A program made the translations under genes and the position numbers. Positions 25,715-59,800 of a stretch of DNA of 61,586 nt are shown piece by piece. Source of the stretch: Candidatus Nanoarchaeia archaeon (GTDB taxonomy: Archaea; Nanobdellota; Nanobdellia; Woesearchaeales; GW2011-AR4); the NCBI GenBank assembly GCA_035293285.1, contig DATDOM010000084.1:1-61586 (forward strand). Reading direction: 5' to 3'. Under the pieces are notes generated by a model. The model was not told the DNA's origin. It made no database searches and saw nothing but the letters and a program-made list of their open reading frames with translations. Each line of letters starts with the position of its first letter. Position 1 is the first letter of the stretch.

Positions 25715-25720
25715 TTTAAT

Positions 25721-26227
25721 TTATTTAAAATATTTTTCAACTTCTGGCGGGAGTGGCGTGCCTGAGTTTATGTGTTCTTTGAGAATAACTCTTAATTCCA
25801 GACCTTCATTGGCAGTGCGCTCAAGCTCATCTCGCGTAAAATTACTATTTTCCATGATAAACCCGGCCACGTATGCGTTTTTTAAGGCATTGTAGTTGGA
25901 TTCCTCAACTGAACCTGGCTCAAATCTTTTTCTTTCGTTCCTGAAAAGATAATCAGATACCCTCTCCATTAAATTTCTGAGACGCTCCTCTTTATGACCT
26001 CTGTCATATCCAATACTGTGACCGTGTAATGCAGCAAGCGGATAAACAAATCCGCCGGAGACCAGAGCTCCAACAATTATTCCAATCATTAATCCTCTTT
26101 TTGGAGACACTTCCTTTTTCTCTTTATACGGCATTTGTACTTCATAAATTGGCATATAACTGGTAATCCACGGCCTTATATAAATTTTTTTAACTAATGT
26201 TTGGCCCGAGTGAAAAAGACGCTGCAT
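25721..26227 (-). CDS. hypothetical single-pass membrane protein
   Basis: 168-codon ORF with one TM helix (LMIGIIVGALVSGGFVYPLAAL). The true start may be an internal Met. Confidence 0.4.
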   Translation of the reverse strand: MQRLFHSGQTLVKKIYIRPWITSYMPIYEVQMPYKEKKEVSPKRGLMIGIIVGALVSGGFVYPLAALHGHSIGYDRGHKEERLRNLMERVSDYLFRNERKRFEPGSVEESNYNALKNAYVAGFIMENSNFTRDELERTANEGLELRVILKEHINSGTPLPPEVEKYFK

Positions 26228-26233
26228 AATAAT

Positions 26234-26304
26234 TAGGCCGCACCATTAGTGCGGCGAATATTCATCTTCAAACCCGCACATTCGCCTGCATTTGAGCGAA
26301 AGTT
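26234..26304 (+). repeat. intergenic structured repeat, family B copy 3 (divergent)
   Basis: TAGGCC is followed by a perfect hairpin GCCGCAC-CATTA-GTGCGGC, then GCACATTCGCC..CATTTG.GCGAAAGTT. The order and spacing match copies 1 and 2. Confidence 0.55.
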
Positions 26305-26316
26305 AATGCTTATTTC

Positions 26317-26414
26317 GTGGATGAACACCGAATGCAGAGGGAAAAACTCATGAGAAGTGTGAGTTTTTACCTTTGTGAGTAGGGTTTTCACAAAGAAAAC
26401 CCGTGTGTGAATCC
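26317..26414 (+). repeat. intergenic structured repeat, family D copy 1
   Basis: Aligns with 38974-39069. It has a closing helix GGATGAACAC/GTGTGAATCC, a long hairpin CAGAGG-G-AAAAACTCA/TGAGTTTTT-A-CCTTTG and a hairpin GGGTTTT/AAAACCC. Confidence 0.8.
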
Positions 26415-26574
26415 TAAATTTAGAAATTTTTAGCGTTAAATTAATGAGCCGCCTATCTATCGCGGAGCTTATTTTAGAATAATTTGCAAATCTAAAACCA
26501 TCTGTAAAACTAATGTTTTCACTTAATTTTTGAGATAGGTACGAAAGAAATTCCAAATACCTTATTAGAAAGCT

Positions 26575-26582
26575 TTTTAAAT
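26575..26582 (+). promoter_or_regulatory. TATA box (AAAGC-TTTTAAAT) for the rpl44e operon
   Basis: The box centre lies about 26 nt upstream of the ATG at 26604, implying a leaderless transcript. Confidence 0.5.
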
Positions 26583-26603
26583 GAACTAACACTTCTTCTC
26601 GTT

Positions 26604-38871: not shown

Positions 38872-38952
38872 ACTTAAATCGGTCGTTTGACGACAAAAGT
38901 TACACTCGGCAAATTTTGATTAGCACTAAAATTTGCCTCGGAATATTGCAAT
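38867..38952 (+). repeat. intergenic structured repeat, family C copy 2
   Basis: Aligns with 8138-8228. Its hairpins are GTCGT-TTG-ACGAC and GGCAAATTTT-10 nt-AAAATTTGCC. Confidence 0.8.
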
Positions 38953-38973
38953 AACTTTGACTGATAGTAAAGC

Positions 38974-39069
38974 GTGGATGAACATCGAGTGCAGAGGGAA
39001 AATCCATGCGAAGTGTGGATTTTACCTTTGCGAGAAGGGTTTTGACAAACAAAACCCGTGTGTGAATCC
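38974..39069 (+). repeat. intergenic structured repeat, family D copy 2
   Basis: Aligns with 26317-26414. Hairpin 1 is AAAATCCA/TGGATTTT, and the closing helix is GGATGAACAT/GTGTGAATCC. Confidence 0.8.
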
Positions 39070-39141
39070 TTTATTACCCAAATCATAAAAATAAACAGTT
39101 GATAGCAGACTTGCCAAATACCGATGCGCCCGAGATGCTAA

Positions 39142-56800: not shown

Positions 56801-59800
56801 CAAGAATTTTTAATACAGGACAGAACCATACTGTTTTTGACAAGATTGCATGGGAGCCACTCCTTCCAAACTCAAGCGAAGTAGTCGGCTACACATCCCA
56901 CACAACTGCAGGCGACATCGCAGTCTTCTACAGAAACGGAAGCTTCGCAGTAAACCTGACAACTGCAGCATTAACTGCAAATATCGGCTTTCGGGAAGGC
57001 GGATTAAGAAGATACACAATTCCAGCAGGATTTGATTACAATGACATAATAGGATTTGCATCAAGGGACCAGACAACTGACGAGTTCGTGTTTTACATAA
57101 ACGGAAGCACGTCTGCAGACACAACGCAGGCTGACTACACTTCGGACATAGCATACGCAAACGGGCAAAACACCTGGACAATTCCCGCAGGATTTAATGC
57201 AACTGAAATAATTGACTTTGAAATAAACTCAGATGGCACAGATTCCGCGGTGTTTTTCAAGAACGGAACATTCATAGTTGCAGCTGCAGAAACTCCTCCT
57301 TTGGCATTTGCGACAGTAAGATTATATACAGTTCCGGCGGGCTTCAACACAAGGGACATAATCGGATTTTCCTATCACGAGGGTGCAAACGACGTAGTTG
57401 CATTCTTCAGAAACGGAACGATTATTTCTGACACAGCCCAGCTGAATTTTGGCTCGGATATAGCGTTTGCCACAGTGCTTAATTCAATTTATCCGACTGA
57501 CTTGAACCTTACTGAAACTACAAACATAACTTTGCAGACAAGAATAAGCAATGACAGTACTACGTTCACAAACTGGAGCAGCGTTTATATTGATCCAAGC
57601 GGAGCCCAGACACTTGATGCACAATACGGAAAATTCATCCAGTACAGGGCTGCATTTTATTCACCCTGGGAATACATCACCCCATTCCTGCAAAATGTTT
57701 CAATAAACTACACGCTTGACCTTTTGTTAACGTCAATAAATGCTTCAATAAATAATACGTCGCCCCGAATAGGAATGAACATAAACATCACTGCAAACCT
57801 AAGCGATGTTTCAGGAGTGTTTTTATGCCAGTTCATTGACAACCAGTCTCTAAACGGCGCAAAGAGGTCCTTTAATTTTACACTTTCACAAAACGATGGA
57901 AAATGCTCCCAGAATTTCACCATTTCAAGAAGCCGCGGCAATGTGATAAATTTTTCAGCTGTAGGCTACGACATTTACAATAATACAAACCAGACTGATT
58001 TCATAATAACTGTTGCAAACACTGATGTGGGCACGCCTACAATACTTTATCCGATAAACCAAAGCTTTGTAAGCCAGCAGCCTCTTCCATTTAACGTTAC
58101 ATTTCCCGGAGATGCTGACGGCGACCCGATAGACATAACGTTTTACATTAATGGAATAATAAACCAGACTACGCAGATAAACACGACATTTAACGCAAGC
58201 GACGGAACTTACATCCTGAATGTCAGCATTTCTGACGGATTTTCAGTTTCACAAAATGTCTCAATAAATTTTACTTTGGATACAACACTTCCTTCAATCA
58301 ACGGCAGCCTTAACAAATCTCCTGATTCAATCCGGACAGGAAATTCAATCAATGCCACTTTCAATGCAACGGATAATACAGGCCTTGACACGGGACAAAT
58401 ACTTGTCAATGACACAGGCATTGTCAGGATATTTAATTTCTCATTAAACGGAGTCAAAAATGCCCAATTTTCCCAGAACATAACGATAAGCTGCACAAGG
58501 GGGTGTGTTGTAAACATTACAGGAATTGTTAATGACAGTGTTAATGGGATGAGGCAGAACTCAACAGTATTCACAGTTGGAAACACTGCTCCGGCAGCCC
58601 CGACAATTTTATTCCCCACGCAGGACTTGTACACTTCAAGGCAGCCACTTCCAATCAATGTAACATTTCCTGCAGATGCCGACAATGACCCTATTACAAT
58701 AAGATACTACATTAATGGAATTCCGAACGGGACTTCACTAGTAAACACGACATTTAATGCAAGCGACGGCTATTACATCCTCAATGTCAGCCTTTTTGAC
58801 GGATTTGACTCAGGACCTAACGCAACAGTCAACTTTACTCTTGACACAACGCCGCCTTCAGTAATGCTCGTTTATCCGGAAAACGCGACTTACAACACAA
58901 GCGGATTTTTGCAGATGTCCTACACTGCAACTGACCAGTTAATAAGCCAATGCCAGCTTTACACAAACTTTTCAGGAGTATGGAAGCTTAACCAGACAAA
59001 CTTGACTCTTGCAAGCGGCGTTTTAAGCTTCTTTAACCGGACTCAAAATACTGAAGGAAGATTTGCCTGGGATGTTTTTTGCAATGACACATTAGGAAAC
59101 TCAAGATTTAATTCAAGCAACTTCACGGTCATTGTTGATGTAACTTTCCCAAAGATTGAGTTTGCAAATCCAACACCGCAAAACAACTCAAACCTTTCTT
59201 CGCCGACACAAATATTCAACGTGACTTATTTTGAGAACAATCCTGGTACTTTGATATTTTCCCTAAACGGCTCATTGCCGAATGAATCAATGAATTATTA
59301 TAACGGGCCTTTGAATTTCACGAACCTGACAAAAACAGGATTGTACGGCACCTACGACTTTTACTTCTGGGCCAATGACAGTGTCGGAAGAAACAACCAG
59401 ACGGAAATAAGGACAATAAACATTGACACAGGATTTCCAAGAGTATCCCTTGAAGCGCCCCTGAACAATACATGGAACAATTCAGAGCCACAATTATTCA
59501 CTTACATCCCAACTGATTATTTTACCGGCGTGAAAAACTGCAGCATAGTGTTTGACACAGGCGCAGTTATTTCAACTAACATCACAAGCGGCAATCTTAC
59601 CGGCACTTATGCGGATTTTGGCGGCAACTATACAAACATTACGGGAAAAAACGACAACTCCTTTTGGTTTTTTGGGCAGGTAAACACTGATGGGCTTCCG
59701 TTTGTAATTGACGCAAGCGCGAACATAACTTTTAATGCAAGCGGCATAAATCCGAGCATAGTAAAAAGCCTTGACTTTGACATAAGCTACTGCCACAGCG

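Follow-up and report, generated by a model that had tools for sequence, protein, structure and literature searches.

The window analyzed here, a 61,586-nt stretch of contig DATDOM010000084.1 from a Candidatus Nanoarchaeia archaeon (assembly GCA_035293285.1), contains two copies of an intergenic structured element, family D (hereafter D). Copy 1 (26319–26414, + strand, 96 nt) has ribosomal protein and GINS genes as its neighbors, and copy 2 (38976–39069, + strand, 94 nt) lies among enolase-region genes. Copy 1 is part of a lineage-specific segment of ∼890 nt between Gins51 and rpl44e (25715–26603, no strand assigned), which comprises an orphan open reading frame (ORF) for a 168-aa membrane protein (25721–26227, minus strand), a module of a second repeat family, B (26228–26318, + strand), directly upstream of D, and D itself. 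In the Woesearchaeota relatives L019–L023, the gap between Gins51 and rpl44e is only 31–72 nt, and no D copy is present in the 20 kb inspected for each.

Both copies share a three-way junction formed by a closing helix, P1, and two hairpin arms, P2 and P3. In copy 1, P1 pairs GGAU-GA-ACAC (26319–26328, + strand) with GUGU-GA-AUCC (26405–26414, + strand), so that a tandem G.A (26323–26324 on the 5′ strand) is enclosed between two blocks of standard pairs. The long P2 hairpin (26335–26375, + strand) reads CAGAGG-G-AAAAACUCA...UGAGUUUUU-A-CCUUUG; it has a G.U pair in the CAGAGG/CCUUUG base, a variable upper stem, and AAGU in the apical loop. P3 (26382–26402, + strand) is the hairpin GGGUUUUC-ACAAA-GAAAACCC, in which the pairing follows GGGUUUU(C)...(G)AAAACCC. 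The corresponding helices of copy 2 are at 38976–38985/39060–39069 (P1), 38992–39030 (P2), and 39037–39057 (P3). Both copies are where the original prediction placed them, with all of the helices it described; their 3′ ends agree, but the 5′ ends had been set two bases too early relative to the conserved core. The paired change from CUCA/UGAG to UCCA/UGGA in P2 of copy 2 and the C-to-U change that creates a G.U pair in P1 of copy 2 were likewise read correctly. The difference between CACAAAG and GACAAAC in the second hairpin is also real, but it is not a change in the loop as had been proposed; rather, it is a flip of an eighth P3 pair from C-G to G-C.

RNAfold predicts the identical junction for the + strand of both copies (-39.0 and -40.5 kcal/mol for copies 1 and 2, z = -6.4 and -6.1), and none of 200 shuffled sequences folds as well. 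The minus strand is weaker (-30.1 and -28.8 kcal/mol). Of the conserved terminal 19-mer and 26-mer, none would be expected in the window, yet each is found there exactly two times. A search with the covariance model, run with filters off, detects two D copies in the 61.6 kb and no others, the next-best match (15 bits) being the antisense of the long hairpin of D itself. Within the 90.9-kb ENA contig that contains the window, there is no further copy in the 9 kb past the window start.

Related genomes contain nine further distinct copies, so that the count of two given in the original prediction is true of the window and not of the family. A two-anchor pattern scan of a genome collection returned two copies on two contigs of one metagenome-assembled genome (MAG; L001/L002, CAZTWQ01), and a three-anchor scan of metagenome contigs returned 13 loci, part of which duplicate the window or the MAG. 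Three of these loci provided new members (L003, L005, and L006), and six were discarded as GC-rich sequences in which only the anchors match and no fold is present (L008, L009, L013, L014, L015, and L016). A covariance model trained on seven sequences subsequently recovered four further, more diverged copies within the loci already found; changes in their P1 helix had hidden these from the exact-match patterns. On a shortened calibration, which makes all E-values approximate, values across the family span 1e-13 to 1e-28, with copy 1 at ∼1e-23 to 1e-25 (98–104 bits; copy 2 reaches 109–114 bits). In total, the sample comprises 11 distinct copies that represent four or five lineages, every one on a Woesearchaeota-type contig: two in the window, three in 15 kb at L007/L024, two in 8 kb at L002, two in 6.7 kb at L005, and one each at L003 and L006. 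D is restricted to a few lineages, yet the same sequence subfamilies are common to them.

The best named homologs of the window eIF2-alpha (∼70% identity) and of an NDP-sugar pyrophosphorylase from the MAG (84%) both belong to Candidatus Woesearchaeota/Nanoarchaeota. The MAG is labeled “uncultured Methanosarcinales archaeon,” which, given the homologs of its proteins, is probably a taxonomic mislabel. Locus L004 matches copy 1 and its flanks without a difference and derives from the same source metagenome as L006; at least a third copy is therefore probably present in the window organism or a close relative. Among viral contigs, a strict pattern scan gave one GC-rich false positive and a degenerate scan gave none, and BLASTN found no match to D in plasmid or phage collections. 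No description of D was found in searches of the literature on MITEs (miniature inverted-repeat transposable elements), repeats, or non-coding RNA of DPANN archaea and Woesearchaeota, or of that on archaeal PATEs.

The additional copies show that the fold of D is under selection. Alignment of the 11 cores with MAFFT followed by RNAalifold, which involves no model fitting, recovers P1, P2, and the P3 base, and 14 of the 29 predicted pairs are compensated on both sides. In the model-fitted alignment, 97.7% of the 352 pair cells are standard pairs, and both-side changes are found in 18 of 32 pairs (50 cells); in P3, they extend to all seven modeled pairs. The covariation score is 0.46, compared with 0.15 in shuffles, and not one of the 500 shuffles attains any of these measures. 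A slid control, with the partner moved by 1–3 columns, gives at most eight both-side pairs and at most 60% pairing. With more copies aligned, covariation is thus well above background by both the shuffled and the slid controls. P1 itself covaries, from GGAU/AUCC to GGGU/ACCC and from ACAC/GUGU to AAAC/GUUU (A-U to G-C and C-G to A-U, respectively).

A chance likeness, or a simple recent segmental duplication without structural constraint, might be suspected from the window alone, in which there are only two copies with ∼88% identity in the core. Identity drops to background level beyond the core, however, and the flanks of the two copies are unrelated, so the pair is not one larger segmental duplication. 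Together with the nine further diverged copies, which retain the fold by compensatory change, and the covariance model E-values given above, this leaves the explanation practically no probability, and we regard it as already refuted.

Across the 11 copies, three features never vary: the tandem G.A/A.G at the center of P1, the G.U in the P2 base, and the GU that joins P3 to P1. A fold of the minus strand would leave A.C or C.A in the pair cells. Since G.U or U.G is found in 23 cells and A.C or C.A in only two, the + strand is the folding strand of D. With DNA parameters, the + strand again folds better (z about -6.1, versus about -3.9 for the minus strand); P1 is barely stable under these parameters, and that of copy 2 is missing from the minimum-energy structure. 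Because of the weakness of P1 as DNA, RNA is mildly favored over single-stranded DNA as the selected form.

These observations bear on a serious rival reading, which we consider unlikely but far from negligible, in which the D copies are paralogous small-RNA (sRNA) genes. Each would give rise, by transcription or processing, to a discrete ∼96-nt junction RNA, acting in trans or serving as the scaffold of a ribonucleoprotein, with a host protein bound to the tandem G.A of P1 and to the base of P2. The invariance of the non-Watson-Crick G.A and G.U, the conserved junction GU, and a P1 that is stable under RNA parameters would all be accounted for in this way, as would the sharp end of conservation exactly at the ends of P1 in 11 of 11 copies.

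A known RNA in divergent form is much less probable and is already largely refuted. Rfam 15 gives no match at the gathering threshold anywhere in the 61.6-kb window, and at a permissive threshold both window loci and four related loci give only scattered sub-threshold matches that differ between copies. This bears out the original prediction, in which no known archaeal RNA family had been recognized. The topology of D, a closing helix with two arms, resembles that of 5S rRNA, but no RF00001 match is found even at E ≤ 10 on 400-nt stretches, and a reduced 5S rRNA is excluded by the presence of three copies in 15 kb and the lack of D in syntenic relatives. GGAUGA is superficially like the C box of a C/D-box sRNA; such RNAs have a C box RUGAUGA, a D box CUGA, and a K-turn with a 3-nt bulge beside the tandem G.A. 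By eye, D has no 3-nt bulge, its tandem G.A lies between Watson-Crick pairs, and its 3′ strand has GUGA and not CUGA. Some copies contain CUGAAGAG, which resembles the hammerhead string CUGANGA, but this sits within a helix and does not occur in the window copies. No Rfam ribozyme matches, and inspection of the alignment by eye shows that the junction strands vary and that there is no GAAA after P2; we therefore rejected a hammerhead or other small self-cleaving ribozyme. The same low probability covers an H/ACA sRNA and the guide-RNA scaffold of TnpB or IscB, neither of whose genes adjoins D. Integron attC sites were rejected as well: in the window copies, the termini of neither strand fit RYYYAAC/GTTRRRY core sites by eye, and D copies sit not in cassette arrays but between housekeeping genes that adjoin one another in relatives.

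D was also rejected as coding sequence, since the overlapping ORFs agree neither in frame nor in length, and the frame is shifted by indels of 1 nt on both arms. The ORFs called over the window copies (119, 70, and 51 aa at 26233–26592 [-], 38874–39086 [-], and 38933–39088 [+], respectively) show no conservation from one copy to the other and should be regarded as spurious. A tRNA gene mentioned in the original prediction was not recovered; ARAGORN finds none in the whole window.

All 11 copies are intergenic, and their neighbors are unrelated between loci. Beyond the window, they include a glycosylation cluster, restriction-modification genes, a Xer-like recombinase, and FabZ/biotin carboxylase. 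At L003 (3288–7237), D lies between a gene for an Mrr-like endonuclease and a DpnII-like endonuclease with an N6/N4 methylase pair. At L005 (4337–5884), the gene for a Xer-like tyrosine recombinase (Phage_integrase plus a SAM-like N-terminal domain) has two D copies, tandemly oriented, immediately upstream. A DUF2779 protein (47% identical between the two loci) is found ∼1.5 kb from D at both L002 and L003, on opposite sides. Judged by the Pfam domains of the flanking proteins, no transposase, HUH, TnpB, or Cas protein is encoded in the window or at any D locus. The 168-aa ORF beside copy 1 was considered as a transposase and rejected, having no Pfam match and a membrane segment.

The orientation of D relative to genes is variable, and several copies lie closely downstream or upstream of a co-oriented gene: copy L007a starts 10 nt past a stop codon and copy L005a is 27 nt ahead of the called recombinase start. 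The two L002 copies (L002a and L002b) are antisense to both of their neighboring genes. TATA-like boxes are plausible, centered near -27, in L007b, L002b, and L005a, and are absent or misplaced in window copies 1 and 2, L006, L005b, L007a, and L002a, so that no such box is found at a constant distance upstream of D. For independent sRNA genes, this evidence points both ways. The three boxes near -27 are in their favor, and the antisense copies would require transcription of their own. Set against them are the six copies without a promoter motif at a consistent distance and the copies squeezed against a stop or a start codon; with no fixed-distance TATA box and such positions, D is not an independent gene in every case.

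Copies on one contig share the same strand (2/2, 3/3, 2/2, and 2/2 on the four contigs with more than one copy), despite differing gene orientation. They are not local duplicates, because neighboring copies differ in sequence subfamily. The GC skew on the D strand changes sign between loci, which makes it useless as a test of replication strand.

Comparison with syntenic relatives shows that D is gained or lost on a short evolutionary scale. The three copies at L024 occupy spacers of 148 nt (PfkB/epimerase), 301 nt (cupin/NTP-transferase), and 299 nt (STT3/FAD-oxidoreductase). Three relatives (L027, L028, and L030) share this gene order, with NTP-transferase identities of 84, 77, and 78%, respectively, and have no D copy in ∼20 kb each; their orthologous spacers are 0 nt (the genes overlap), 109–126 nt, and 73–111 nt. 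Where spacers could be aligned, promoter boxes are recognizable on both sides, with an extra ∼180–235 nt between them. D is therefore missing at three orthologous sites, and it is also missing from the relatives of the L002 locus (L034–L038). The HAD hydrolase gene between L002a and L002b has few homologs and added just two more D-less relatives. D is dispensable, because its copy number varies widely between genomes and it is missing both from these syntenic relatives (77–84% identity) and from all other Woesearchaeota loci examined. The same variation and absence argue against paralogous sRNA genes. The proposal in the original prediction that D is either an RNA gene or a structure-dependent mobile element is supported, and none of the outcomes named as counting against it was observed; the choice between its two halves is not settled, and presence and absence push toward a mobile or dispensable module.

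Inspection of the flanks by eye revealed no target-site duplication abutting D or its outer stem (described below) in any of the 11 copies; only loose 6–8-nt repeats occur at variable offsets, which is compatible with chance. The borders of the 11 copies share no 4–5-mer and contain no conserved target or cleavage motif. In four copies (L007b, L007c, L005a, and L003), the D core lies inside an extra helix of 14–17 bp formed by the flanks, the sequence of which differs from copy to copy, as in CAAAAUCCCAACAA[D]AUUGUUGUUGGGAUUUUG. These outer-stem regions are at L007 2100–2250 and 11720–11870, L005 5255–5395, and L003 4640–4790, and their 3′ flank regularly opens with YUUGUUGUU and closes in a U run. 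The flanks of L002a and L002b are imperfect and direct-repeat-like, and the window copies have neither an outer stem nor such repeats. As an independent repeat, the outer-stem motif was met only beside D, a looser pattern being uninformative. The outer stem may mark insertion of D into hairpin loops that were already there, an extended version of the element, or an inverted duplication of the flank upon insertion.

The lack of target-site duplication, the uniform orientation within each contig irrespective of gene orientation, the strand-specific fold that persists with DNA parameters, and compensatory stem changes like those of REP elements would also suit a second rival. Here, D would be the single-stranded-DNA recognition structure of an HUH-type element (IS200/IS605-, PATE-, or REP/RAYT-like), acted on by its transposase on the lagging-strand template, with no role as RNA. 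We consider this doubtful: no Y1/HUH or TnpB gene is seen in any locus, the borders lack a 4–5-nt target or cleavage motif, the P1 of copy 2 falls outside the DNA minimum-energy structure, GC skew lends no support, and a three-way junction is unlike the usual simple subterminal hairpin.

D is also one module of a mosaic system, and is far better conserved than the spacers around it. A composite of ∼300 nt is common to two unrelated loci, that of copy 1 (window 26190–26480) and L006 (1130–1400, minus strand). Its order is a stretch of ∼35 nt containing the ATG and initial codons of the 168-aa ORF, family B, D, a poorly conserved ∼35-nt spacer, and a conserved motif of ∼30 nt (AGCCKMCTATCGCGRAGCWTATTTTAG), which in the window reads GAGCCGCCTATCTATCGCGGAGCTTATTTTAG (approximately 26446–26478, + strand). 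The upstream partner of copy 2 is family C instead of B. It is this exchange, B, D, and the motif at copy 1 and L006 and C with D at copy 2, by which D behaves as a mosaic module. Families A, B, and C do not have the tandem-GA helix of D. Of the 168-aa ORF, the ATG and the first 4–5 codons lie within the composite, and no such ORF exists in L006; its start may come from the repeat, or the ORF call may be wrong. A second B-like module is found further upstream in L006, at about 1410–1445.

Considered together, these data establish D as a new family of intergenic elements in a few Woesearchaeota (DPANN) that are dispersed, dispensable, and constrained in structure. Beyond this, we tentatively favor, at somewhat less than an even chance, a model in which D is a non-autonomous mobile module of ∼96 nt that is recognized in single-stranded form by a trans-acting protein and has spread without target duplication. 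D would then belong to a set of dispersed non-coding structured repeats between the genes of certain Woesearchaeota. When single-stranded, its + strand would fold into the three-way junction, with a tandem sheared G.A (UGAA/UGAA) in P1, the G.U in P2, and P3 as a short hairpin. Spread would take place at the DNA level through a protein specific for both structure and sequence, which we infer would recognize the sequence-conserved helices of P1 and the P2 base. The orientation bias and the lack of duplications suggest a process nearer to the “peel-and-paste” of HUH enzymes (IS200/IS605 and REP/RAYT) than to that of MITEs moved by DDE transposases. Read through from neighboring genes, D would probably yield RNA with a highly stable structure at the ends of mRNAs, as do REP/BIME, ERIC, and Correia elements.

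Several points weigh against a mobile module. The relatives examined offer no precise empty site; the D-less relatives are 16–30% diverged in protein, and their spacers are not alignable base by base. Apart from the one Xer-like recombinase beside L005a, no transposase, HUH, TnpB, or integrase partner is found in ∼300 kb of loci, and D has no conserved target motif. The retention of the P1 sequence, tandem G.A, and G.U across lineages fits an RNA bound by a host protein equally well. Read-through cannot explain the antisense copies L002a and L002b. Finally, the same-strand pattern rests on four contigs only, with a chance of ∼1/32 under random orientation.

A further variant, which we think improbable, makes D the RNA component of a novel archaeal mobile system, either SINE-like and propagated by a DPANN reverse transcriptase, or a guide or scaffold for an unrecognized RNA-dependent recombinase or nuclease. 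It would explain at once the RNA-type constraints (tandem G.A, G.U, and sharp P1 ends), the insertion polymorphism, and the lack of target-site duplications.

Among described systems, D may be closest in behavior to REP/BIME and IS200/IS605-derived elements and closest in modularity to pneumococcal BOX. Like bacterial REP/BIME/REPIN sequences, D is short, strictly intergenic, multicopy, and non-coding, keeps its hairpins by compensatory change, forms mosaics with other small motifs, and lacks target-site duplications; REP sequences are, moreover, often co-transcribed at mRNA ends. In contrast, REPs are simple GC-rich hairpins of ∼35 nt that contain a conserved GTAG, number in the hundreds, and are linked to a RAYT gene, whereas D is an archaeal, AU-rich three-way junction of 96 nt with a tandem G.A; its copy number is low to moderate, and no RAYT-like gene is seen. 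PATEs derived from IS200/IS605 and the guide-RNA (omega/reRNA) scaffolds of TnpB are comparable in their lack of target-site duplication, strand-specific single-strand structures, derivation as non-coding elements, and occurrence in archaea (PMC3119063; PMC10055086). Unlike PATEs, D has no nearby TnpA or TnpB gene, lacks a pair of similar hairpins at its left and right ends, and shows no conserved target tetranucleotide, and in several copies complementarity runs past the 3′ end of D. Structure maintained by compensatory change and the lack of target-site duplication are thus shared with the REP/RAYT and IS200/IS605-PATE classes, but neither a cognate Y1/HUH/TnpB gene nor a target tetranucleotide was found at the examined loci, and membership so far fails on the missing transposase and target motif.

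Prokaryotic MITEs (Correia/NEMIS, ERIC, RUP, and Sulfolobus SM1-4) are similar in being non-autonomous, intergenic, ∼100 nt long, bounded by a terminal inverted repeat, and polymorphic in presence and absence. The P1 strands of D form such a repeat (GGATGAACAC / GTGTGAATCC, 8/10, imperfect). We nonetheless rejected membership among DDE-type MITEs on the lack of a target-site duplication. No parent insertion sequence with the same ends is seen in the ∼300 kb of loci, and the interior of D (stems, G.U, and loops) is under structural selection that a DDE transposase would not need. Pneumococcal BOX elements are assembled from modular repeats (boxA/B/C) in varied combinations, are intergenic, and form stable RNA structures, which parallels the mosaics of A, B, C, and D. 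They are unrelated in sequence and host, and their order is fixed (A-Bn-C), whereas D joins B, C, or the outer stem.

DPANN archaea have small, tightly packed genomes, and to our knowledge almost nothing is known of their non-coding RNAs and mobile DNA. If D is a mobile module, it would represent an uncharacterized archaeal mobilization mechanism, dependent on structure and leaving no target-site duplication, and a BIME/BOX-like modular repeat system outside bacteria. If D instead encodes sRNAs, it would be a new RNA class with a defined helix of the protein-binding type. On either reading, the covariance model of D provides a marker with which to track lineages and annotate intergenic regions.

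The far end of the window has features of its own. Two copies of a 166-nt direct repeat lie at 58077–58242 and 58641–58806 (77% identity). The last ∼5 kb contain few ORFs of at least 100 aa, and a long ORF that contains repeats may continue past the end of the window.

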